Shown one piece after another: positions 5,361 to 22,685 of a DNA stretch of 27,662 nucleotides. The stretch is taken from assembly GCA_964500025.1 (NCBI GenBank), contig CAZCMQ010000003.1, forward strand, positions 1 to 27,662, given 5' to 3'. Positions within the stretch are counted from its first letter, which is position 1, and every line of letters begins with the position of its first letter. The stretch comes from an uncultured Candidatus Saccharibacteria bacterium. Its GTDB lineage: Bacteria > Patescibacteriota > Dojkabacteria > SC72. The position numbers and the translations under genes are program-made. The notes below the pieces were generated by a model. It saw nothing but the letters and a program-made list of their open reading frames with translations. It was not told the DNA's origin and did no database searches.

Positions 5361-5744
5361 TTATTTTATGGTGCTCTCTATTTCCAAATCTATTATGTCT
5401 ATTGATTTCTGCATTGCTTCGCATATTTCCATATACCACATATGGGTTTCATGAACGCTATGCTTCTTTTTGCTAGTAAACTCACTTACCTTCTCTAAAA
5501 CGGATACTGGAAAGGCTGTATTAATTTTGTCTACTAAATCATGTGGATATTTCCCGGATAGCATTGCATCTAATAGCTCACTTTTTACCTTGTTATAGAC
5601 AGATTCCAGTCTAGATCTCTTATCCTTCAGAAAATCTACCTTTAATGTCTTTTTCCATTTTTTGTATTCAATTAACTGTACAATCACTGGGACGATGCTT
5701 GCAATTATTCCACCAACTATAGTTGCTAAGATTGTTTCTGACAT
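5361..5744 (-). CDS. hypothetical membrane-anchored protein (single N-terminal TM)
   Basis: 127 aa. N-terminal TILATIVGGIIASIVPVIVQLI. Its start codon lies 21 bp from the 3' end of tRNA-Asp. Confidence 0.4.
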   Translation of the reverse strand: MSETILATIVGGIIASIVPVIVQLIEYKKWKKTLKVDFLKDKRSRLESVYNKVKSELLDAMLSGKYPHDLVDKINTAFPVSVLEKVSEFTSKKKHSVHETHMWYMEICEAMQKSIDIIDLEIESTIK

Positions 5745-5764
5745 ATAGCGGATTGTTAATTAAA

Positions 5765-5841
5765 TGGCGGAATGGACGGGACTCGAACCCGCAACCTTCG
5801 CAGTGACAGTGCGATGCTCTAACCAATTGAGCTACCACTCC
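5765..5841 (-). tRNA. tRNA-Asp (anticodon GTC), CCA encoded
   Basis: Manual cloverleaf: acceptor GGAGTGG/CCATTCC, D-stem GCTC/GAGC, anticodon stem TCGCA/TGCGA with loop CTGTCAC, T-arm GCGGG-TTCGAGT-CCCGT, discriminator G, then CCA. Confidence 0.9.
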
Positions 5842-5939
5842 AAATTCCTGCAAAGTATATCAAAACAAACGTAACTGCACAACATACGCTATAGCAAAAA
5901 TATATTGTTGCCTCAGACTTTAAGTGTTACACTCTCCCA

Positions 5940-6827
5940 ATGCTCTCCCAGATATTTAGAAACAAAAAGAATATAGAACTCTTCAACCACACCCTAATCC
6001 TCACAGATGAACAGCTGAACATAACAAAAGTTGAGGTAGGAACGGGTAAAATTCTAAAAGACCTTCAAGGAAACTTCATTGACTCAGTCTCAAACGGTTT
6101 CAAAAATAAACTCAAATATGAGATAGATCGGCTTGGACCAAGAAGACTGTGCATATCACTTGATATACAGTTAGATACAAACATGGGCATGATGCCATTT
6201 AAGCTAATCATCACAAGAAACAATGAGGGACTGCAAATAATTGCGGTTGAAATGACTGAAGCACTACGAATGAAAGAAGAAACCGAAGACCTTTACTATC
6301 TAGCATTTTTTGACCCCCTGACAGAACTTCTCAACAGACGAGGCTACTACCTCATGGCAATCAACCTCATTCAAAGGGCTGCAAGAGATGGGCATGGAGT
6401 CGGAGTCTTGCATATAGATATGGATGCACTAAAACAGATTAATACAGACGAAGGACATAAAGGAGGGGATAGCGCAATCAAAGAGTTAGCTGAAATTGTG
6501 CGTAGGGCAACAAGAAAAACAGACGTTTTGTCAAGGTTTGGAGGTGATGAGTTTGTAATATCTTTTGAAGTAGATCCCAAAAAAGATTTCACAATTGAAG
6601 ACATGTCTGAAAGACTACTTAGATACTCAAGAGCAAATAAAGGACACAGAAGCACACTCTCTATTGGAGCTCACTTGATTAAAGCAGGCAGAGTAAAGGA
6701 GATGGATGAATCTAAAGATATTCAGAAAGAATTGGAGTACGAAGTATCAGTAGCTGACAAATATGGAAGACTTGCCAAGAAACTGGGCAAAGATAGATAT
6801 ATCACAAAAAAGATATATAAACCCTAG
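5940..6827 (+). CDS. GGDEF-domain diguanylate cyclase with an uncharacterised ~130-aa N-terminal domain
   Basis: Contains DPLTELLNRRGY, the intact active-site RFGGDEFVI, and an RxxD I-site (RKTD) 5 residues upstream of GGDEF. Confidence 0.85.
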   Translation: MLSQIFRNKKNIELFNHTLILTDEQLNITKVEVGTGKILKDLQGNFIDSVSNGFKNKLKYEIDRLGPRRLCISLDIQLDTNMGMMPFKLIITRNNEGLQIIAVEMTEALRMKEETEDLYYLAFFDPLTELLNRRGYYLMAINLIQRAARDGHGVGVLHIDMDALKQINTDEGHKGGDSAIKELAEIVRRATRKTDVLSRFGGDEFVISFEVDPKKDFTIEDMSERLLRYSRANKGHRSTLSIGAHLIKAGRVKEMDESKDIQKELEYEVSVADKYGRLAKKLGKDRYITKKIYKP

Positions 6828-6829
6828 GA

Positions 6830-7168
6830 TTATGCTGAGTGCTTAGTTAAAGCATTCTCATAAACACCCTTTGGCTGTACACCAATGAATGTTTCAACTA
6901 ATCCCCCGTCTTTAAACAGTAATACAGTTGGAATACTCATAACCTGATATTTCTGTGTCGTCTCAGGATTCTCATCGACATTAAGTTTCTTCATCTCAAA
7001 TTTTCCAGCGTTTTCGTGGTAAAGCTCGTGCAAAATAGGTTCAAGCATATGACATGGCTGACACCATACGGCCCATAAATCCACTAAAACTAAACCCTTT
7101 GAATTTAACACCTCACTCTCAAACTGAGAGTCAGTAATATCGAAATCATGACTATGACCGTTATGCAT
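6830..7168 (-). CDS. trxA: thioredoxin
   Basis: WCQPC active site (LVDLWAVWCQPCHML) and the thioredoxin-fold pattern throughout. The start is taken at the internal Met (MHNGHSHDFDITD...). The 50 upstream codons of the 6830..7318 track ORF have no homology and would overlap the divergent TsaC start. Confidence 0.85.
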   Translation of the reverse strand: MHNGHSHDFDITDSQFESEVLNSKGLVLVDLWAVWCQPCHMLEPILHELYHENAGKFEMKKLNVDENPETTQKYQVMSIPTVLLFKDGGLVETFIGVQPKGVYENALTKHSA

Positions 7169-7214
7169 TGTATTAGTGGTATAATTTATATGTTTTAGTA
7201 TAGCACAGCCGTCA

Positions 7215-8321
7215 ATGCCCAAGATAGTAAAACTAGAAAAAAACAACTTAGAGCAAGTATTAAACGAAGCCGTTGAGGTAATTAGAAACGGTGGACTTGT
7301 CGTATATCCATCTGACACGTGCTATGGAATCGCAACAGATGCAACTAATCAAGATGCCGTAGACAGATTGAAAAAATATAAACAATTTAGGGGGCAAAAG
7401 CCAATCTCAGTAAATGTTGCATCAAAAGAAATGGCTTCTGAATATGTAAAAATAAATGAGACAGCACAAAACCTGTATGACAACTACATACCAGGTCCGA
7501 TTACAATAATCTCTGAAAGCCTCGGTAAACTAGCAAATGGGGTCCAATCAGACTGGGGAACAGTAGGAGTAAGAATCCCAGACCATGAGGTTCCAGTTAA
7601 GCTTGCTCAAAAATTTGGAAAGCCGGTAACTGCAACATCTGCAAATGTTTCGTACAAAAGCCTCCCATACAGCATAGAGTCATTATTTAAATACACGCCT
7701 AAGAAAAGTTTGGAACTAATTGATCTAATAATAGATGCAGGAGAACTCCCTAAGAATGTCCCTTCTACTGTTTTGGACACCACCATGAACTCCCTCCAAC
7801 TCTTGCGAGAAGGCAAAATGGAATTTGAAGACGCTGTTAAAAAGTCCAACCTCTACAAAACTGTCACAACACAAACTGCACAGGAAACAATTGAATTTGG
7901 AAAAGAAATAGCACAGTACTTTGCTTCAAAGCATGACAATGGCTCACTCGTTTTTGCATTAAGTGGTGAGCTTGGAGCAGGAAAAACCCAGTTTACCAAA
8001 GGAATTGGAGAGCACCTTTCAGTAGAAGATATGGTTAACTCCCCAACCTACACCATTATCAACGAGTACCGATACAATGACGGAGAGAACGAGAGAACAC
8101 TTGCCCACATGGATACATGGAGAATTGCTGATGTGGAAGAATTCAAAAGATCTGGATTAAAAGAATACTTGGAATCAAGTGATATTGTTGTAATTGAATG
8201 GGCTGACAAATTCTTCCATGAGATTGAAGAGATTGTAAAAGAGTTTGGTGGAGTATTAGTCAAAATTAATTTTAAGTATCTCTCTGAAACAGAAAGGGAG
8301 ATTTCAGTATATGAGTCATAG
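7215..8321 (+). CDS. tsaC-tsaE: fusion of TsaC/YrdC/Sua5-like threonylcarbamoyl-AMP synthase domain (N-term) with TsaE/YjeE P-loop ATPase domain (C-term)
   Basis: N-terminus: GGLVVYPSDTCYGIATDA ... VGVRIPDH (YrdC fold). C-terminus: ALSGELGAGKTQFTKGI ... SPTYTIINEY ... HMDTWRI (TsaE Walker A and SPT motifs). Confidence 0.85.
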   Translation: MPKIVKLEKNNLEQVLNEAVEVIRNGGLVVYPSDTCYGIATDATNQDAVDRLKKYKQFRGQKPISVNVASKEMASEYVKINETAQNLYDNYIPGPITIISESLGKLANGVQSDWGTVGVRIPDHEVPVKLAQKFGKPVTATSANVSYKSLPYSIESLFKYTPKKSLELIDLIIDAGELPKNVPSTVLDTTMNSLQLLREGKMEFEDAVKKSNLYKTVTTQTAQETIEFGKEIAQYFASKHDNGSLVFALSGELGAGKTQFTKGIGEHLSVEDMVNSPTYTIINEYRYNDGENERTLAHMDTWRIADVEEFKRSGLKEYLESSDIVVIEWADKFFHEIEEIVKEFGGVLVKINFKYLSETEREISVYES

Positions 8322-9369
8322 AATACTAGCTGTAGATACAAGTTGTGATGAAACATCCGTTGCGGTTGTAGATGGTCGAAGGGTTCTTTCAAGTGTGCGC
8401 TCTTCCCAGGTAGATCTGCACAGCGAGTGGGGTGGTGTTGTCCCAATGATTTCAAAACGAGCTCATGAGGAGAATATCCAAGGCGTATATGAAGAGGCAT
8501 TGAGTAAAGCTAAGCTCACAATACAAGATATTGATTACCTTGCTGTTACATACGGCCCAGGACTTGCAATTGATTTGGAAGTTGGGATTGAGTTTGTAAA
8601 GGAATTGGCTAAGAAATATGATAAGAAAGTAGTTGCAATAAATCATATGGAAGGACACCTCCTTTCCTCCCTAGTTCTTAATTCAAAAGGAAACGGACTG
8701 ATCTCCGATGAAAAGCTTCCTGAAATATTTCCGGCTCTTGCCCTTCTCGCTTCCGGAAAACATACCGAAATTGTTCATGTAGAAAAGATCGGAAAGTATA
8801 GAAAGTTGGGTCAGACTTTAGACGATGCTGCAGGTGAGGCTTTTGACAAGGTTGGTAGAATGTTGGACTTTGGATATCCCGGTGGTCCTGTTGTTTCAGA
8901 GTTTGCCAAAAAGGGTAAAAGGGGAATTATTGAACTTCCAATTCCTATGGCTAAATCAGGAGACCTGAATTTCAGCTATTCCGGATTAAAAACAGCTTGT
9001 TTGTACAAGATTAAGGAATTGAAAGAGTCAGGTGTTCCTCAAAAAGAGTGGATCTATGATTTCTGTAGAAGTTTTGTGGATGTTCTCACTGAGTCATTGA
9101 AGATTAAGCTGTCTAAGGCTATTGAGATGAATTCGGATATTAAGAGTGTATTAGTTGGTGGTGGAGTTTTTGGAAGTGAGTATATTTTAAGAGAGGTTGG
9201 ACAGGTAGTTAAGTCATATGGATTGGAGTATCTGTATCCTGAGAAGGAGTATAGGACGGATAATGCTGCTATGATTGGTATTGCAGCACATTTTAATATT
9301 CTTGAGGGAAATGTTTTGAGTGAGGAAGAGTTGGAAGGATTGGATAGGGACCCGAGACTGAGTCTTTAG
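8311..9369 (+). CDS. tsaD: tRNA N6-adenosine threonylcarbamoyltransferase TsaD (Kae1/Qri7/YgjD family)
   Basis: ILAVDTSCDETSVAVV N-terminus and the HMEGH metal-binding motif (AINHMEGHLLSS). There is an 11-nt overlap with the upstream gene (ATGAGTCATAG), suggesting translational coupling. Confidence 0.9.
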   Translation: MSHRILAVDTSCDETSVAVVDGRRVLSSVRSSQVDLHSEWGGVVPMISKRAHEENIQGVYEEALSKAKLTIQDIDYLAVTYGPGLAIDLEVGIEFVKELAKKYDKKVVAINHMEGHLLSSLVLNSKGNGLISDEKLPEIFPALALLASGKHTEIVHVEKIGKYRKLGQTLDDAAGEAFDKVGRMLDFGYPGGPVVSEFAKKGKRGIIELPIPMAKSGDLNFSYSGLKTACLYKIKELKESGVPQKEWIYDFCRSFVDVLTESLKIKLSKAIEMNSDIKSVLVGGGVFGSEYILREVGQVVKSYGLEYLYPEKEYRTDNAAMIGIAAHFNILEGNVLSEEELEGLDRDPRLSL

Positions 9370-9377
9370 GATTCTTT

Positions 9378-10154
9378 TCAGGCTAAGGAACTTATAAAAT
9401 TTTCTATTAAATAGTTTGTCCTTTCTGGTTGCTCCATGTTAACCATATGACCAGCATCTTGGACAATTATCCTTGTAGAATTTCTAATACCACTTTCTAG
9501 AACACCAGCAACTTCATTGTAGTACTCGAGATCATTCTCTCCTGTAATTATCTGAGTTGGTATCTGTATCTGGCTTAACCTTGTTACTGCAGGAGGTTCA
9601 ATTTTTAATGCTGGGTCTTGATTTATCCAATGCCATCCAGAATATTCAGAAACTATATCTTGAATTTCACTAAATACTTGCTCTTTTTTTCTTGCTGGTG
9701 AAAACAACTCATGGTTTAACCAGTTCCTTTTTGCTGTTTCTGTGCCCTTTTCAGCTTCTAGAGAGTACTGTACTTTTCGAGGATATCCTCCTAAAGTTGA
9801 GGAAAGGAGTGTAAGTGACTTTACAAATTCTGGATATGTAAGGGCAAAATCAATTGAAATGTATCCTCCTAGAGAAAGGCCTACAATGTGAGCATTTGTA
9901 ATATTTAAGCTCTTCATAAGATTTAATAAATCCTCATGATGTGAGTAAGGTCCTTTTGGCACTGGCGATTTTCCGAACCCTCGGATATCGTAGGTGATGC
10001 ACGAATAACTGTCTTTCAGGTGCTCGACCTGTTTTCTCCACATCCTATTAGTTAGTCCAAATCCATTGATAAATACAATGGGATCTCCGGAACCTTCTTT
10101 TTCATAGTATATGGGCTCACCTGTGGTTGTATGATCTTCAAATGTTGGTTGCAT
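9378..10154 (-). CDS. alpha/beta hydrolase fold protein
   Basis: IVFINGFGLT... oxyanion region, nucleophile elbow HIVGLSLGG (GxSxG), and a C-terminal DAGHM catalytic His. Confidence 0.8.
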   Translation of the reverse strand: MQPTFEDHTTTGEPIYYEKEGSGDPIVFINGFGLTNRMWRKQVEHLKDSYSCITYDIRGFGKSPVPKGPYSHHEDLLNLMKSLNITNAHIVGLSLGGYISIDFALTYPEFVKSLTLLSSTLGGYPRKVQYSLEAEKGTETAKRNWLNHELFSPARKKEQVFSEIQDIVSEYSGWHWINQDPALKIEPPAVTRLSQIQIPTQIITGENDLEYYNEVAGVLESGIRNSTRIIVQDAGHMVNMEQPERTNYLIENFISSLA

Positions 10155-10242
10155 AGAAGCATTTTATCAGTAGGCTTATTTATAGTAAAGATGATGTTTA
10201 GATATAAACAGATCTTACTGAATTGTTGCTTATGCATTCGTC

Positions 10243-11691
10243 GTGATAGAATATACTATGAGTGGTATCCCAAGAAATTTTGAATCCGAAAGTAGTGAAT
10301 CACAACCCTTATCTGCATTGTCTGTTTTTGATGGTCGCTACAGCGAGGATACAAAAGAATTAACTCCATATCTTTCCGAAGCCGCATTAATTGATAAGAG
10401 AATTTTTGTTGAATTAATGTATTTAATGAAACTCTCCAGAGAAGGGATTGTTAGAGAGTTTTCAGATGAGGAAACCAATTATATTTCCACAATAATTGAT
10501 GAAGATCCCTTGTCGAAAGCTATTGCCATTAAGGGGCATGAGAAGATTGTTAAGCATGATGTAAAAGCTGTTGAACTTTTTTTAAGAGATAAATTCGAAG
10601 GTACATCACTTCAGGATCAGACCGAAAATATTCATTACTGTTTAACATCAGAGGATGTAAACAATCTCGCTTATCGTCTGATGTTTAAAGAGTCTTTAGA
10701 ACAGGTCTTTATGCCAGATTTCGAAAAAGTGATTGTTTCTCTATTGAGTTTTGCTAATGAGAATAGATCAATAGTTATTATGGGTAGAACACATGGGCAA
10801 GATGCTGTGCCAACAACTTTTGGTAAAGAAATTGCCGTTTATGCTGATAGATTATTAAAAAAATATGAGCAGCTCTCAAGACTTAGGTTAACCGGGAAGC
10901 TAAATGGTGCGGTAGGTTCCTGGAACTCTTTCTACTTTGCGCACCCTGAGTCAGATTGGATTAGAATTTCAAAAGAATTTGTGGAGAGTCTTGGTCTGGA
11001 GTTTAATCCGGTAACAACTCAGATCAATCCATATGACGATGTTGTTGAAATGCTTTCAAAGTTCCATAATATTAATGGAATTCTTCTAGACCTGGATCAG
11101 GATATGTGGCGCTACATTAGTGATGGATGGCTCAAACAAAAGAATGCAGAAAATCAAGTGGGTTCTTCTACAATGCCTCAGAAGGTCAATCCAATTAATT
11201 TCGAAAACAGTGAAGGTAATTTACAGATAGCTAATGGAAGCATTGAGGCACTTCAGAGAACCTTACCTATCTCAAGATTGCAGCGAGATCTGTCAAACAG
11301 TACTTTAGTTCGCAATGTTTCTCACATATTTGGCTACGAACATTTGGCGATGGCTGGAATTTTAAAAGGAATGTCAAAGGTATTTGTTGATCAGCAAAAA
11401 GTAGCCTCGTACTTGAATGAAAATTGGTCAAATCTTGCAGAACCGTTACAGACTTTGCTTCGTAAAAGTGGATTCTCAGATGCATATGAAGATGTCAGAA
11501 AAAAGGTTATGGGTAGGTCACTAAGTCGAGAGGAGTGGACTTCACTGGTTACAGAATTGGCAGTAGATGGTCATGTTAAAGAGGAGTTGTTAGGATTAGA
11601 TTTCTCTCGGTATATTGGCATTAGTGAAGGTATTGTTGATCTTGTCTCTAAAAAAGCGACTACTTTACTTCACTCCAACAGGGATAGCTAA
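10243..11691 (+). CDS. purB: adenylosuccinate lyase
   Basis: Fumarate-lyase signature GSSTMPQKVNPINFENSEGN. It can be aligned with E. coli PurB throughout (HDVKAVE, CLTSEDVNN, GRTHGQDAVP). Confidence 0.9.
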   Translation: MIEYTMSGIPRNFESESSESQPLSALSVFDGRYSEDTKELTPYLSEAALIDKRIFVELMYLMKLSREGIVREFSDEETNYISTIIDEDPLSKAIAIKGHEKIVKHDVKAVELFLRDKFEGTSLQDQTENIHYCLTSEDVNNLAYRLMFKESLEQVFMPDFEKVIVSLLSFANENRSIVIMGRTHGQDAVPTTFGKEIAVYADRLLKKYEQLSRLRLTGKLNGAVGSWNSFYFAHPESDWIRISKEFVESLGLEFNPVTTQINPYDDVVEMLSKFHNINGILLDLDQDMWRYISDGWLKQKNAENQVGSSTMPQKVNPINFENSEGNLQIANGSIEALQRTLPISRLQRDLSNSTLVRNVSHIFGYEHLAMAGILKGMSKVFVDQQKVASYLNENWSNLAEPLQTLLRKSGFSDAYEDVRKKVMGRSLSREEWTSLVTELAVDGHVKEELLGLDFSRYIGISEGIVDLVSKKATTLLHSNRDS

Positions 11692-11733: not shown

Positions 11734-13224
11734 ATGGATGGAGTCACCGGCAGAATAATGGACTCGAAAGAAGTCCTAAAATTGTATCGTGATACAGTTA
11801 AAAACTCTCCACCTCTCACCAAACTTAAAAGCAGTATAAAAAATCCCGGAGGCTCATATCGCCCCAATACCATTTCTGTAGAAGACGTATATTTTGGAGA
11901 TTCTGGAAAAGGATCTGTTGTTGCAAAATACAACAATATTCTTGCTAAAGATATGAAGCTGGTTTCACTCCGCTTTAATGGAGGGGCTAACGCGGGTCAC
12001 GAGACTATGTTTAATGGAAAACTTGTTGTTACTCATCAACTCCCAACTGCAGTCGCAGCACCTGGTGCTGTTGCAATAATTAGTAGGGGAATGTTAATCC
12101 ACCCTGAAGATCTTCTTGTCGAAATAAATGAAGTAAAAGAAGTTTTCTCTGGCATCCTTCCAGGGCAACTACTAATAGACGAAAGAGTCACCCTTGCACT
12201 TGATACACACAGGGCATTTGAAGGCGTGTTAAATGGTATAACCACAGGAGGAAGAGGATCCACCGGTCGAGGAATCGCAACGGGTTACTCAAGTCACTAC
12301 GAGAGATTCCCTGTTATTCTAAAAGACCTGCTTTCCCATAGATGGGAAGATATTTTTAGAGCACACTACAGAATATATGAGAAGCTAGTCCTCGGATCTT
12401 CAAACTCCCTTCCACTTTCTGAAATTGAAGTTCTAACCTATTCAAAAAACAAGGGTGAGAAAAGAAAGGTAGGAGACGAAGATACCTTTATATCGAGATT
12501 AAAACTCGCTCGTTCAGAAATTAGGCGTTACAGGGTTGATAACATGCACGACGTTATCAAGCAGGCTTGGCAGGATACAAAAGTAGCTGTAACTATTGAG
12601 GGCGCACAAGGAGCTGGTCTTGATCCGTATCATGGTGTCTATCCCGATGTAACATCCAGTAGACCAATGTCGCGCTTTATGAATGATGCTACATACAACA
12701 TCATTCTTCCTGAAGATATTCTTTTTAGAGTAGCTGTCATGAAAACAACATACATGTCCAGTGTAGGCAGAAGAGTTCTTCCTGATATGCCAGATGAGGA
12801 GAAGATAAAATGGATACAAAGTGCTTTTGATGAAAGGGGAAGAACCTCTGGAAGGTTAAGAGATATATATCCTGTTTCCATACCTATTGCCCAATATCTA
12901 AGAAGGGCGGCTGGTTATACATGTATTGCCGCAACGCACCTTGATGCTTCAAAAGTTGATTCCGATATTGAAGTTGTTACTCACTACACGAAAAAAGATT
13001 CTGGTGAAGAGGGACCATACCTTCCTTATCAAGATATCCTTGATGAATTTGATCCAAACTTTGTAAAATTTAGCGGTTGGGATGGTGAGGAAGTAAAAAC
13101 TATTCATAACCCTAAGAATTTGCCTTTGGAAGCTCTGCAGTATCTTCACTTCTTGGACAAAACAATTGCCCCTGTTGTTATGGCAACAACAGGCCCAGAT
13201 TTAGAGGACTATATTCTCTGGTAG
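11734..13224 (+). CDS. purA: adenylosuccinate synthetase, divergent, with a ~45-aa N-terminal extension
   Basis: YFGDSGKGSVVAKY (P-loop, GDEGKGK-like) and NGGANAGHE (GGxNAGHT). 496 aa compared with roughly 430 in typical PurA. Confidence 0.8.
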   Translation: MDGVTGRIMDSKEVLKLYRDTVKNSPPLTKLKSSIKNPGGSYRPNTISVEDVYFGDSGKGSVVAKYNNILAKDMKLVSLRFNGGANAGHETMFNGKLVVTHQLPTAVAAPGAVAIISRGMLIHPEDLLVEINEVKEVFSGILPGQLLIDERVTLALDTHRAFEGVLNGITTGGRGSTGRGIATGYSSHYERFPVILKDLLSHRWEDIFRAHYRIYEKLVLGSSNSLPLSEIEVLTYSKNKGEKRKVGDEDTFISRLKLARSEIRRYRVDNMHDVIKQAWQDTKVAVTIEGAQGAGLDPYHGVYPDVTSSRPMSRFMNDATYNIILPEDILFRVAVMKTTYMSSVGRRVLPDMPDEEKIKWIQSAFDERGRTSGRLRDIYPVSIPIAQYLRRAAGYTCIAATHLDASKVDSDIEVVTHYTKKDSGEEGPYLPYQDILDEFDPNFVKFSGWDGEEVKTIHNPKNLPLEALQYLHFLDKTIAPVVMATTGPDLEDYILW

Positions 13225-13279: not shown

Positions 13280-15547
13280 ATGGCTCGAAACTTATATTCT
13301 CAAGAACCGGTAGTTATAAACTCAGTATATAAAGATACTCAGTCTTCTCCTACAAAAAAGTATCTTGAAATAGCAACTACTAATGAGAATAAGTTGAAGG
13401 AAATTCGCAGGATTCTGAAGGATTTCGAGATAATTGGAAAGTCTCTAGATATAGAGGAGATACAATCATTAAATTGGTCAAGGGTTGCCTCCGCTAAGGC
13501 AAAAGCAGCATATGAAGCAAATGGGTATAATCCTATTTTAGTAGAAGACACCTCGCTTGAAGTAAAAGGTCTTGATGGCTTCCCTGGAACTTATGTTAAT
13601 GATTTCTTCTCAACCGCTTCTATGAGAAAGGAGGTTGCCCAAAATTGGCTTAATGGAAAAGATAGATCCGCAATTGCTAAAGTAACCCTTGCCATCTTTG
13701 ACGGTAAAGAAGCTTTCATTTTTGAGGGAAATTGCGAAGGTAAAATTTCCGAAACTCCTATGGGTATGAATGGCTTTGGATGGGATGACATCTTTATCCC
13801 AAATGGTCAGCCAAAGGGTGAAAAGAAAACATTTGCACAGATGAATTCTGAGCAAAAGGATAAGTATTCGATGAGAGTGAATGCTTTAAAGAAATTTCTT
13901 AAGAGTCCTCCAGTTTTGAACTACAAAGTTTTTAAACTTCTTGAACCTTTTGACCAAGAGATGCAACGAGTTAGACTAAAGGAATTGAAGGATGAGACAG
14001 CTATTAAGTTCGCGTATACTCTCGAAGCGATCGAGGGTGATAATGAAGCGAATAATCTTTTAACTGCTCCTAACTATTCTGAAGTTTACTTAGAAGAGAA
14101 TGCCTATTTTTCTAGATTTTTGCAAAAGAAAAATAGTAAAAGCATAGGATTAATGCTGACTGATACTGATCGTACACACATAAAGTTGCAGAAAAATGGT
14201 TATCCAGTCCTTTGGCAAATGGGTCCAGAGAGAAGGCACCTTGCCTTGGCAGAAAGGGTTGAATATTTTACTGAAAATCAGAGTAAAGATGCTCATAAGA
14301 TATTGGATGAATTGGAAAATAAAAAAGAAAGTTTCCCAAAGAGGTCTAATAAGAGATCTATTACTATAGATAGATCTTTAGGGTTTGTCGGTGGAGATGT
14401 TGTAACTCGTGCTTCTGCAGTAAAGGAAATTGGTTATAAGAAATTTGCATCAGAAAAAGAAGTGAGCAGAACGAAGGCTTCAAAATCTGGGCTTTTCAAT
14501 ATAATTGGGAAGTATGCAAGAAGTATTTATTCAATTGGTTGTCTTCCTTGGGTTTCTGGTTGGAGAGATGTGATTATTACCGGTGCAGTCGGCCATATGC
14601 CTGTTTTTGTACACAGGAATAATCTCAATGCGATTGATCTTCAGAATCAAATTGATCTGATTAACGATGCGAAAAAAGCTATAAAAAGTTTAGGTCTTTC
14701 AAAAAAAGCTCTTGAGAGGGCGTATAATAATATCGGTGCGGCGGTAGGTACAAATCCTGTCGAGGATAGGAAAAAAGCTAGGAGGCTATATGATGAAGCA
14801 GGTGTGAAATTATTTAGGATATACACAATAAACTCGGATCCTAGGGTTGTTCAAACAGCACGAGCAATTAGAGAAGAACTAGGGGAAGATGTAGAGATAT
14901 TTGTTGGTCAGTTAGTTGATAAAAGACAGGCGTATGAATTAATTGTTGATGATATTAAGATTGACGGTTTGATTATTGGTCACGGTGGTGGAAGAGTCTG
15001 TACATCTGCAACGAATGGCATGGCACTTAGCACACTTGAAGAAATTTATTCGATCGTTACTGATAGTGCATTTAATAATACTAGTGTACTTGTTGAGGGT
15101 GGTTTAGGTAGTCATATTGGAAGTTCACTTATTATGGGAGTTGATGGCATATTGCGCAATGGACAATTTGCAAGCTGTGTTATTGAGCAGGGTGACCTAT
15201 TTTTTGAACATATGAATGGAAAGCCTTGTCAGCCATACCATGGTAGCGCAAGTGCTGCAACTATGATTATTGAGTCATACAATCCTGAGAATGCTAAGGG
15301 ACGATTATTTGCTAGTGGAAGGGCTAAAAATGTAGAAGGTAAGCCTGGCTACATTTATTATGAGGAAAAGGGTAACTCAATGTCGTTCTATGTAAATGAA
15401 TTCAAACACTATGCGGCGAGGACTCTTGCAGATTTAGGTGTTGAAAGTATCTGGGAATTGAGAGAGTTTGTAGCAAATACAGATGAAGAGATATTTAGAG
15501 AGGTTACGCCAGAAGCATCAGTTGTTTCAGGAGCTTGGAGGAACTAG
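13280..15547 (+). CDS. multidomain protein: N-terminal Ham1/RdgB-type non-canonical purine NTP pyrophosphatase (ITPase) domain, an uncharacterised middle region, and a C-terminal IMPDH/GMP-reductase-like TIM barrel with catalytic Cys loop
   Basis: N-terminus: ATTNENKLKE ... VEDTSLEV ... GFPGTYVNDF (ITPase motifs). C-terminus: IGHGGGRVCTSATNGMAL (compare IMPDH VGIGPGSICTTR) ... VLVEGGLGSHIGSSLIMGVDG (compare IADGGI..SGDI.KA.A.GA). 755 aa. Confidence 0.7.
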   Translation: MARNLYSQEPVVINSVYKDTQSSPTKKYLEIATTNENKLKEIRRILKDFEIIGKSLDIEEIQSLNWSRVASAKAKAAYEANGYNPILVEDTSLEVKGLDGFPGTYVNDFFSTASMRKEVAQNWLNGKDRSAIAKVTLAIFDGKEAFIFEGNCEGKISETPMGMNGFGWDDIFIPNGQPKGEKKTFAQMNSEQKDKYSMRVNALKKFLKSPPVLNYKVFKLLEPFDQEMQRVRLKELKDETAIKFAYTLEAIEGDNEANNLLTAPNYSEVYLEENAYFSRFLQKKNSKSIGLMLTDTDRTHIKLQKNGYPVLWQMGPERRHLALAERVEYFTENQSKDAHKILDELENKKESFPKRSNKRSITIDRSLGFVGGDVVTRASAVKEIGYKKFASEKEVSRTKASKSGLFNIIGKYARSIYSIGCLPWVSGWRDVIITGAVGHMPVFVHRNNLNAIDLQNQIDLINDAKKAIKSLGLSKKALERAYNNIGAAVGTNPVEDRKKARRLYDEAGVKLFRIYTINSDPRVVQTARAIREELGEDVEIFVGQLVDKRQAYELIVDDIKIDGLIIGHGGGRVCTSATNGMALSTLEEIYSIVTDSAFNNTSVLVEGGLGSHIGSSLIMGVDGILRNGQFASCVIEQGDLFFEHMNGKPCQPYHGSASAATMIIESYNPENAKGRLFASGRAKNVEGKPGYIYYEEKGNSMSFYVNEFKHYAARTLADLGVESIWELREFVANTDEEIFREVTPEASVVSGAWRN

Positions 15548-21152: not shown

Positions 21153-22685
21153 ATGCAAGAGCAATATCTAAGTCTTGGTAACAAGGATGTCCTAAACGGA
21201 CAATACCTGCTAGCCGTATTCAAAATAGTACCTTATGGTGATGAATCAATAGAAAGTGCTGCAACCGAAGCAGCTGCAGAATCTTCTACTGGATCAAACC
21301 TAAAAGTTTCTTCAGCAACAAACTACTCAATGAATATTGATGCGCTTGTATATGATATAGATAAAGAGAGGAGCCTTGTCTATATAGCATACCCATGGAT
21401 TATGTTTGATAGAGGTGGGAATATTCAAAACATCCTTACCTTCCTTGCTGGAAATGTTTTTGGAATGAGTAACCTTAAAGAGTGTAAGCTTCTTGATGTT
21501 TGGTTCCCACCACAGATGCTTGTGCAGTACGATGGACCAAGTTACACCCTCGATGACATGAGAAGATATCTTGATGTATACGACAGACCAATTCTAGGAA
21601 CAATCATTAAACCTAAAATCGGACTAACTTCAACAGAGTATGCTGAACTTTGCTACGATTTCTGGGTTGGAGGCGGTGATTTTGTAAAAAATGACGAACC
21701 TCAGGCTGATCAGTTCTTTTCTCCATTTGAAAAAATGGTTGATAGTGTAAGAGAGGCAATGGACAAAGCCGAAAAAGAAACAGGACGAACTAAGGTTCAC
21801 TCATTTAATGTTTCTGCAGCAGACTTGGAAACTATGGTTAGGAGAGCAAGGTATGTTGTGCAGACAATGAAGCCTGGTAGTGCATCTCTTTTAATTGATG
21901 GAATCACTGCAGGTTGGAGTGCTGTACAGACACTGAGAAGAAATTTCCCTAATACCTTTATTCACTTCCACAGGGCAGGGCATGGTGGATTTACAAGAAA
22001 AGAAAACCCAATAGGATATACAGTTCCCGTAATGACGAAGTTTGCCAGACTTGCCGGTGCATCGGGTGTGCATACTGGTACAGCGGGTGTTGGAAAAATG
22101 TCAGGAGATGCCCATGAGGATATCACAGCAGCACATCAGGCCCTTAGATTCTGTGCAGATGGATGGTATTTTAGGCAAGTATGGTCAGAAGTTCCATCAA
22201 GAGACACAAATATTCAGGAAATGATTTCTAAAGAGAAAAAAGTTTGGGAGATGGGTGCTAGAGAACTTGCTAAAATGAGAAGGACTAAAGCTCTTAGTGC
22301 AGAGGGGCTTGAAGAACATACTAACTGGAGAGTAATTCCAAAAATGTCTCCAATTGTTTCTGGTGGGATCAACCCAGTATTACTTCCAGAGTTCTTAGAT
22401 GTAATGAAATCAATTGACTTTATAATTACAATGGGTGCTGGGGTTCACTCACACCCAATGGGAACTACTTCTGGTGTGAAAGCAGTTTTACAAGCGTATG
22501 AGGCATGGTTGGAAAACGTACCACTTGAGGAGTTTGCACGTGATAAAGAGGAATTGAGAGTTGCGGTTGAATTTTACAACAAGTACGGAACTCAAGCTCA
22601 TAAAATGAAAAGTGATAGTTCTCAGGTAGAAAATCAAAACACTAGTGGTGAGGTTACTTCACCAATTGAAGATCCTACGCTTTAG
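21153..22685 (+). CDS. rbcL: ribulose-1,5-bisphosphate carboxylase/oxygenase large subunit, form II/III-like (as described in CPR bacteria and archaea)
   Basis: Alignable with RbcL throughout: AAESSTGS, GNVFG, IIKPKIGLTSTEY (K175/K177), GGGDFVKNDE (K201 carbamate site plus D/E Mg ligands), HFHRAGH (H294), HTGTAGVGKMSGD (K334), PIVSGGINP (S379-G-G), MGAGVHSHPMGT (G403/G404). It has a ~25-aa insertion before the SGG loop and a ~30-aa C-terminal tail. Confidence 0.9.
   Translation: MQEQYLSLGNKDVLNGQYLLAVFKIVPYGDESIESAATEAAAESSTGSNLKVSSATNYSMNIDALVYDIDKERSLVYIAYPWIMFDRGGNIQNILTFLAGNVFGMSNLKECKLLDVWFPPQMLVQYDGPSYTLDDMRRYLDVYDRPILGTIIKPKIGLTSTEYAELCYDFWVGGGDFVKNDEPQADQFFSPFEKMVDSVREAMDKAEKETGRTKVHSFNVSAADLETMVRRARYVVQTMKPGSASLLIDGITAGWSAVQTLRRNFPNTFIHFHRAGHGGFTRKENPIGYTVPVMTKFARLAGASGVHTGTAGVGKMSGDAHEDITAAHQALRFCADGWYFRQVWSEVPSRDTNIQEMISKEKKVWEMGARELAKMRRTKALSAEGLEEHTNWRVIPKMSPIVSGGINPVLLPEFLDVMKSIDFIITMGAGVHSHPMGTTSGVKAVLQAYEAWLENVPLEEFARDKEELRVAVEFYNKYGTQAHKMKSDSSQVENQNTSGEVTSPIEDPTL

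Follow-up and report, generated by a model that had tools for sequence, protein, structure and literature searches.

A TsaC-TsaE fusion gene overlapping tsaD in a probable t6A operon of Dojkabacteria

The canonical bacterial route to N6-threonylcarbamoyladenosine (t6A) at A37 of tRNA relies, in model organisms, on four separate proteins: TsaC, which makes the intermediate L-threonylcarbamoyl-AMP (TC-AMP), and the members of a TsaB-TsaD-TsaE complex (together YrdC, YeaZ, YgjD, and YjeE in Escherichia coli; the complex is TsaB2D2E2 in Thermotoga maritima), with tsaC usually unlinked. Here we describe a departure from that arrangement in a 27,662-nt stretch of DNA—called the window throughout, and comprising the whole stretch analyzed (contig CAZCMQ010000003.1 of assembly GCA_964500025.1, positions 1 to 27,662, forward strand)—from an uncultured bacterium deposited as Candidatus Saccharibacteria and placed by GTDB within the Dojkabacteria. 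In it, TsaC and TsaE are joined in one polypeptide whose gene is predicted to be co-transcribed with tsaD. The three protein families are those of the canonical system, with the same catalytic and nucleotide-binding motifs apart from a shifted Arg in the TsaC domain, and presumably with the same chemistry (TC-AMP synthesis, transfer to A37, and a TsaE ATPase cycle). The canonical system also has TsaB, whereas none was seen in the window or in the flanks that we sampled around related loci. We conclude that the locus is probably a true t6A operon of two genes in a Dojkabacteria genome (Candidate Phyla Radiation, or CPR, also called Patescibacteria), the first gene encoding a bifunctional TsaC-TsaE and the second TsaD.

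In the solved T. maritima structure, TsaB and TsaD clasp TsaE between them, and both domains of TsaB are in contact with it; the SPT(F/Y)T loop of TsaE links the active site of TsaD to the gamma-phosphate of ATP, and TsaE competes with tRNA for one and the same site (PMC6009658). Missoury et al. 2018 proposed that ATP-bound TsaE "prepares" TsaD for TsaC and for the transfer of TC-AMP, and that ATP hydrolysis then frees TsaE so that tRNA can bind (PMC6009658). In pull-downs from E. coli, TsaC bound both TsaB and TsaD (PMC4615747); a survey of the pathway states that no direct interaction between YrdC (RimN) and the YgjD complex has been reported (PMC3571937).

Several described proteins resemble the fusion in part. 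TobZ, HypF (YrdC-like plus Kae1-like), and Pandoravirus TsaN (TsaD-TsaC-SUA5-TcdA) likewise tether a YrdC module to transfer machinery, but in these the synthase is fused to the transferase, whereas here its partner is the regulatory ATPase and the transferase is a separate protein, whose translation is predicted to be coupled to that of the fusion. The TobZ and HypF fusions channel a labile adenylate (PMC9654439, PMC10484737). Sua5 and TsaC2, which gave the best whole-chain Foldseek hits and are nearer in sequence to our TsaC domain than is E. coli TsaC, share with the fusion an N-terminal YrdC-fold synthase, a linker, and an alpha/beta C-terminal domain; in them, however, that last domain is SUA5, whereas here it is the TsaE P-loop ATPase (PF02367, with a Walker A motif). 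More generally, t6A subunits are prone to fusion in combinations that mirror physical or functional partnerships, archaeal Kae1-Bud32 among them. The documented cases include YeaZ::RimI::YgjD, Alr::YjeE, and hydrolase::YeaZ (PMC3571937), as well as TsaC/HemK in Mycoplasma genitalium (PMC4615747), and none joins TsaC to TsaE. Nor is such a fusion among those given in t6A reviews and surveys, and our full-text literature searches returned no description of it; searches for work on t6A genes in CPR bacteria likewise found none. The minimal systems—mitochondrial Sua5 with Qri7, and those of Mycoplasma haemofelis and M. suis—are comparable in their reduced-genome context but have neither TsaE nor TsaB, whereas the present locus keeps a conserved TsaE domain and so is not of the TsaE-less Qri7 type.

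Domains and motifs of the fused protein

Do the two halves of this protein look like working enzymes? The N-terminal half gives a full-length match to PF01300 (Sua5_yciO_yrdC; E 1.6e-44) and the C-terminal half a match to PF02367 (TsaE; E 3.7e-31) in Pfam, and each lies above the cut-off of its NCBIfam equivalog model: TIGR00057, L-threonylcarbamoyladenylate synthase, with 170.5 bits (cut-off 123.2), and TIGR00150, TsaE, with 90.1 bits (cut-off 60.1). The domain junction (nt ~7815-7871) contains no stop and no change of frame. The next gene encodes TsaD, as judged by PF00814 (E 1.1e-72) and TIGR03723 (326.2 bits; cut-off 296.1), and its translation holds the HMEGH metal-binding motif (His-x3-His) and a C-terminal TDNAAMIG. 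These matches bear out the preliminary description of the window, which had placed a TC-AMP synthase and the TsaE ATPase on one polypeptide; its 11-nt overlap between the fusion stop and the tsaD start is also as described (Table 1), the shared bases reading ATGAGTCATAG directly at the junction. A putative Shine-Dalgarno site, AGGGAG, lies 10 nt before the tsaD ATG, and the overlap may couple translation of tsaD to that of the fusion gene. In the intergenic region upstream, an extended -10-like element (TGgTATAAT, 7177-7185) could conceivably serve as part of a promoter, but a promoter and terminator consensus scan gave nothing above chance and no full -35/-10 promoter in those 46 nt. The case for an operon therefore rests on the overlap and on conservation.

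Table 1. Positions of the fusion gene, tsaD, and associated elements in the window
Feature	Position (nt)	Strand	Remarks
Divergent intergenic region, trx/fusion gene	7169..7214	+	46 nt; sequence read
tsaC-tsaE fusion gene	7215..8321	+	ATG start; 368 aa plus stop; single open reading frame
TsaC domain (YrdC-fold, TC-AMP synthase family), aa 21-200	7275..7814	+	PF01300
Variant KxR motif of TsaC domain, K56-Q-F58-R59	7380..7391	+	
TsaC S142-A-N144 of KRSN tetrad	7638..7646	+	within T-A-T-S-A-N
Inter-domain linker, ~aa 199-211	7809..7847	+	short; variable in length and sequence; lowest model confidence
TsaE domain (P-loop ATPase), Pfam aa 220-342	7872..8240	+	PF02367; NCBIfam match aa 224-365, to nt 8309
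TsaE Walker A, G251-E-L-G-A-G-K257-T258	7965..7988	+	
TsaE S276-P-T-Y motif (SPT(F/Y)T loop)	8040..8051	+	
AGGGAG, Shine-Dalgarno-like site for tsaD	8295..8300	+	within the end of the fusion gene; putative function
tsaD	8311..9369	+	ATG start; 352 aa; threonylcarbamoyl transferase subunit
Overlap of fusion stop and tsaD start	8311..8321	+	11 nt; stop TAG 8319-8321, start ATG 8311-8313

We judged motif conservation on a 30-sequence alignment reaching down to 28% identity, and counted motifs in 268 fetched homologs. Within the Walker A motif of the TsaE domain, G254, G256, K257, and T258 are invariant; the exact string GELGAGKT occurs in 131 of the 268 homologs, the remainder having conservative variants. 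S276 of the SPTY loop is invariant as well, P277 and T278 are nearly so, and the switch-like motifs H298-M-D300-T-W-R and E328-W329 are invariant or nearly invariant. The domain, a predicted P-loop ATPase, retains every motif of a working TsaE.

The TsaC domain is more unusual. A143 is invariant, S142 and N144 are found in at least 90% of the aligned sequences, and TATSAN is present in 205 of the 268 homologs. The KRSN tetrad (KxR...SxN) discriminates TsaC/Sua5 from the non-isofunctional paralog YciO (PMC4615747). Here K56, S142, and N144 of the tetrad are kept, whereas the canonical Arg position is occupied by F58 and an Arg follows one residue later (R59), a shift seen in residue-level alignments to MTH1692 (KGRS) and to T. 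maritima TsaC2 (KERP). This K-x-[FLY]-R form occurs in ~95 of the 268 homologs, across the Dojkabacteria clade (KTFR, KKFR, KKLR, KQFR), while deeper-branching fusions retain the canonical KxRP or KxRR. MTH1692 and T. maritima TsaC2 are also the best sequence matches of the domain in the PDB, and its E values against TsaC2, Sua5, and MTH1692 (1e-30 to 1e-33) are far lower than that against YciO (1e-17). The equivalog score, this nearness to TsaC2 and Sua5 rather than to YciO, and the operon context lead us to favor a working TsaC variant.

An AlphaFold2 model of the fusion, built from the family alignment, has two well-formed domains (mean predicted local distance difference test score, pLDDT, 92; predicted TM-score 0.71). 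The pLDDT falls to 60-80 in the blocks covering residues 191-210, with the dip confined to about aa 199-211 and the first TsaE strand starting at aa 212; the same region appears in the 30-sequence alignment as a gap of up to ~7 columns. The linker joining the two domains is short, about 6-13 residues. Foldseek searches against the PDB matched the N-terminal domain to YrdC, YciO, and Sua5 structures (target-length-normalized TM-score 0.8-0.86 against 1hru and 1k7j), and the TsaE domain to Bacillus subtilis YdiB, HI0065, and the TsaE chains of T. maritima TsaBDE (0.72-0.76, normalized in the same way; targets 5np9, 1htw, and 6n9a_E). No solved PDB chain in that search carried both domains. The whole-chain hits to Sua5 cover the first domain only, with a root-mean-square deviation of ~15 Å over the full chain, and by Pfam the C-terminal half has no SUA5 domain but PF02367 in its place.

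Recurrence and gene neighborhood of the fusion

Does the joined architecture recur beyond this contig? Both Pfam domains were present in all of the 120 best clusters (51-100% identity; NCBI, JGI, ENA, and Logan; lengths 302-387 aa), and 119 of the 120 also passed the coverage thresholds. When 1.84 billion cluster representatives were scanned exhaustively with HMMER, 229 matched at E ≤ 1e-30. At least 102 of the 150 best representatives of clusters at 50% identity are full-length fusions, and 28 more hold both domains in part, as fragments or insertion-bearing copies. Roughly 20 full-length fusions were found in one-genome-per-species contigs. The 901-kb ENA contig ERZ13693180 NODE_7 and the 792-kb JGI contig Ga0376277_0000042 also bear the fusion. 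Among the carriers in the one-genome-per-species set are the complete 1.17-Mb chromosome of a Dojkabacteria bacterium (CP129475.1), two Roizmanbacteria, several metagenome-assembled genomes (MAGs) labeled "Patescibacteria group," and one planctomycete, Ca. Uabimicrobium sp. HlEnr_7 (NZ_CP165719.1, RefSeq, 9.3 Mb; our locus L026), in which the fusion lies at 9995-11068 and is 39% identical over residues 4-363. This last copy either arose independently or was passed horizontally between this predatory planctomycete and a CPR lineage. Other records of the fusion are titled, as deposited, archaeon, Gammaproteobacteria, and Clostridia. An exact-sequence look-up of the window's fusion protein returned no record, and its close homologs bear the name "Candidatus Dojkabacteria bacterium."

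These surveys speak to several points raised in the preliminary description. The names on the closest homologs agree with its reduced-genome host, a CPR bacterium, and the fusion that it suggested looking for in CPR genomes does recur, in Dojkabacteria, Roizmanbacteria, and other Patescibacteria as well as the planctomycete. The link that it drew to genome reduction does not hold, because the fusion is also found on a 9.3-Mb planctomycete chromosome. Nor is the architecture peculiar to this locus: it is widespread and already catalogued, in hundreds of database proteins, some with a dual JGI name. The locus is a case of known parts in an arrangement that is undescribed in the literature yet common, and already present in public databases.

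The alignment runs unbroken through the domain junction. Long members of the family (411-483 aa) consist of the same two domains plus insertions and are not triple fusions. Some members carry insertions of 60-120 residues without a Pfam match, and in one 434-aa protein (P0149) ~100 residues separate the domains, so the family does not keep strictly to one linker length. Relatives that are ~40-50% identical in the TsaC domain are standalone TsaC proteins of ~200 aa, so that fused and split states both exist in the wider clade.

We compared the gene neighborhood in ~25 independent fusion loci, with flanks of up to 10 kb on each side. In most of them tsaD lies immediately 3' of the fusion. The genes overlap by 11 nt in the window and in L005, L006, and L009, by 14 nt in L004, and by 4 or 1 nt in L012, L018, L020, and L024; gaps of 100-540 nt separate them in L014, L021, and L022. 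In three loci of one Dojkabacteria lineage (L001-L003) a lineage-specific gene of 178 aa stands between the two (11091-11627 in L001, where it overlaps the fusion stop by 14 nt). Its C-terminus is cupin-like by eye, and the protein has no family match. As tsaB occupies such a position in Firmicutes operons, we considered this gene as a TsaB candidate and rejected it, because the protein lacks a TsaB motif, matches no family, and has no counterpart conserved in the other loci. A conserved small "Pcc1-like" partner beside tsaD was likewise rejected, the small flanking open reading frames (ORFs) being lineage-specific. No other gene of the operon is conserved across the loci compared.

Where, then, is TsaB? 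Apart from tsaD itself, no window ORF of ≥90 aa matched PF00814 or TIGR03725, whether by Pfam across all of them or by NCBIfam at E up to 1 among the unannotated ones; no TsaB was found either by phmmer or a home-made hidden Markov model (HMM) among the window's stop-to-stop ORFs of ≥80 aa. The statement in the preliminary description that there is no TsaB nearby thus stands for every window ORF so searched. In the related loci we used phmmer with E. coli TsaB and an HMM built from that sequence and the N-domains of 24 TsaD proteins (--max), together with precomputed Pfam annotation in four Dojkabacteria neighborhoods, and extended the search to ~20 further fusion loci. These flank searches gave only TsaD and unrelated enzymes, and Pfam identified no TsaB among ten candidate ORFs (130-290 aa) beside tsaD. 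A scan of viral contigs with a TsaB alignment found no CPR TsaB, and the degenerate DNA pattern for GPGS[FY]TGxR[IV]G recovered one TsaB, at 55% GC and not CPR-like.

A proposed tethered hand-off and competing explanations

How might the fused protein act? Most likely it follows the canonical bacterial route, except that TsaC is tethered to TsaE, and we infer that the tether matters at the hand-off step. TsaC would make the labile TC-AMP from threonine, bicarbonate, and ATP, while ATP-bound TsaE would dock on a dimer of TsaD and TsaB, at the entrance to the active site of TsaD. The tethered TsaC could then release the intermediate beside TsaD in its TsaE-bound state, from which tRNA would be excluded; ATP hydrolysis would eject TsaC-TsaE, tRNA would bind, and the threonylcarbamoyl group would be moved onto A37. 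The fusion would fix a 1:1 stoichiometry and the proximity of the two accessory activities, and the overlap with tsaD would couple synthesis of the transferase to that of the fusion. A TsaC-TsaE fusion is what the model of Missoury et al. 2018 predicts could be selected.

Four observations weigh against this account. TobZ has its TsaC-like module on the face of the TsaD-like module opposite the TsaE site (PMC6009658), and the linker of the fusion is so short that TsaC cannot be placed as in TobZ as long as TsaE occupies that same TsaD; the hand-off would call for either an alternative geometry or delivery to the second protomer of a TsaB2D2-type assembly. In two loci, L016 and L026, the fusion has no adjacent tsaD. 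No tsaB turned up in the window or in the flanks, of up to 10 kb, searched around the ~25 related fusions. Finally, the Arg of the KRSN tetrad is displaced in the Dojkabacteria clade, so that TC-AMP synthase activity of the present domain is assumed.

The plainest competitor to a tethered hand-off is that the fusion brings only co-expression and gene economy, with no channelling and with the two domains acting independently. The linker is poorly conserved in both sequence and length, members such as P0149 tolerate long insertions between the domains, close relatives with a standalone ~200-aa TsaC indicate that fused and split states interconvert, and other t6A fusions pair functionally unrelated partners, as in Alr::YjeE and TsaC/HemK (PMC3571937, PMC4615747). 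Yet the fusion persists to ~28-30% identity, in at least 100 clusters at 50% identity and at least two phyla, which suggests positive maintenance rather than accident, and both partners had already been proposed to act at the same TsaD step (PMC6009658). We regard this explanation as possible but rather unlikely. That the N-terminal domain of the Dojkabacteria clade is instead YciO-like or neofunctionalized, with the true TsaC encoded elsewhere, we consider very improbable. The F58 at the canonical Arg position is its main attraction, a missing KRSN tetrad being what separates YciO from TsaC (PMC4615747), but the other three tetrad residues are kept and the next position holds a conserved Arg, R59; the K-x-[FLY]-R form recurs in so many homologs as to indicate purifying selection; the score lies above the TIGR00057 cut-off and the sequence is closer to TsaC2, Sua5, and MTH1692 than to YciO; and deeper fusions in the same operon context keep the canonical KxR. 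An assembly or frameshift artefact fusing two adjacent genes, which the preliminary description had named as a possible undoing of its reading, can be practically discounted. MAG contigs do contain errors, and a few database relatives (P0178, P0248, P0251) resemble frameshifted copies; however, the same single ORF recurs in over 100 clusters, drawn from four independent sources of data and put together with different assemblers, it is carried by a complete circularized Dojkabacteria genome and by the RefSeq planctomycete chromosome, and its alignment is continuous through the junction. Conservation across independent assemblies already refutes an artefact.

A further possibility, which we hold to be unlikely although less so than a YciO-like domain, is the machine independent of TsaB for which the preliminary description had allowed. 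In a minimal machine of this kind tsaB would have been lost, TsaD would form a homodimer like mitochondrial Qri7, and TsaC-TsaE would compensate by binding the TsaD dimer directly. It would account for the lack of a TsaB-like ORF in the window and in the flanks of loci from diverse lineages, and for an operon without a conserved third gene; the hosts are mostly reduced CPR genomes, and there are precedents in the minimal Sua5-Qri7 systems and in two Mycoplasma species without TsaB (PMC4615747). Local absence, however, says little, because t6A genes are dispersed in most bacterial phyla (PMC3571937), and the flanks sampled are a small part of each genome. The only bacteria reported to be without TsaB also lack TsaE, and the reduced Mollicutes lost TsaE first, not TsaB (PMC4615747), whereas here TsaE is kept with every motif intact. 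Because TsaE docks on TsaB as well as TsaD in solved complexes, contacting both TsaB domains (PMC6009658), its retention argues for a tsaB gene elsewhere; the presence of the fusion in a 9.3-Mb planctomycete chromosome also fits poorly with a machine pared down by genome reduction. We therefore infer that tsaB probably lies elsewhere in the genome. Were TsaB nevertheless lost in the fusion-bearing Patescibacteria, their t6A machine would consist of three domains on two polypeptides and would be the first in bacteria to have TsaE in the absence of TsaB, which would imply a different mode of TsaE docking and a built-in arm for delivering TC-AMP.

Surrounding genes and implications

Upstream of the fusion gene and on the opposite strand lies a thioredoxin gene (trx), for which mechanical ORF calling gave a 162-aa, GTG-initiated frame (6830-7318, minus strand) that runs into the beginning of the fusion gene. 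With thioredoxin homologs measuring 106-111 aa, this frame is probably over-extended; the true start is probably an internal ATG at 7168 (gene 6830-7168, minus strand), which abolishes the overlap. A gene for a GGDEF-domain protein (5940-6827, plus strand) precedes the trx, tsaC-tsaE, and tsaD genes, and is kept in L001, L004, and L005. In L001, a 901-kb Dojkabacteria contig, a CD-NTase (PF26305) and a Cap15-like effector (PF18153) form a CBASS (cyclic oligonucleotide-based antiphage signaling system)-type defense pair (5514-6978), ~3 kb upstream of the t6A operon.

Farther downstream in the window, directly after purB (10243-11691) and purA (11734-13224), a 755-aa ORF (13280-15547, plus strand) encodes a Ham1/ITPase domain (aa 31-208) followed by an IMPDH/GMP-reductase barrel (aa 454-729), the two being parted by ~245 residues without a family assignment; it looks like an unusual purine-salvage fusion. 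A 510-aa homolog of the RuBisCO large subunit is encoded at 21153-22685 (plus strand), with no small subunit seen nearby, and is also present in the syntenic Dojkabacteria locus L004. We take it to be, probably, a form II/III-type enzyme of the CPR nucleoside-salvage pathway.

What does a conserved TsaC-TsaE fusion mean for t6A synthesis? It bears on how the very unstable TC-AMP reaches TsaD from TsaC, and on the purpose of the TsaE ATPase cycle. To our knowledge, a four-protein TsaB-TsaC-TsaD-TsaE complex has never been isolated, and the fusion offers a ready-made stoichiometric construct for cryo-electron microscopy or for kinetics of the hand-off. There is also a practical consequence for annotation: NCBI names these proteins "threonylcarbamoyl-AMP synthase" only, while JGI once gives a dual name, and because the NCBI name covers the TC-AMP synthase alone, automated surveys may score TsaE as missing in these lineages and misjudge the t6A pathway of CPR bacteria. 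Overall, the conserved joining of TsaC to TsaE provides "Rosetta-stone" evidence that the two share a step on TsaD, in line with the proposal of Missoury et al. 2018.

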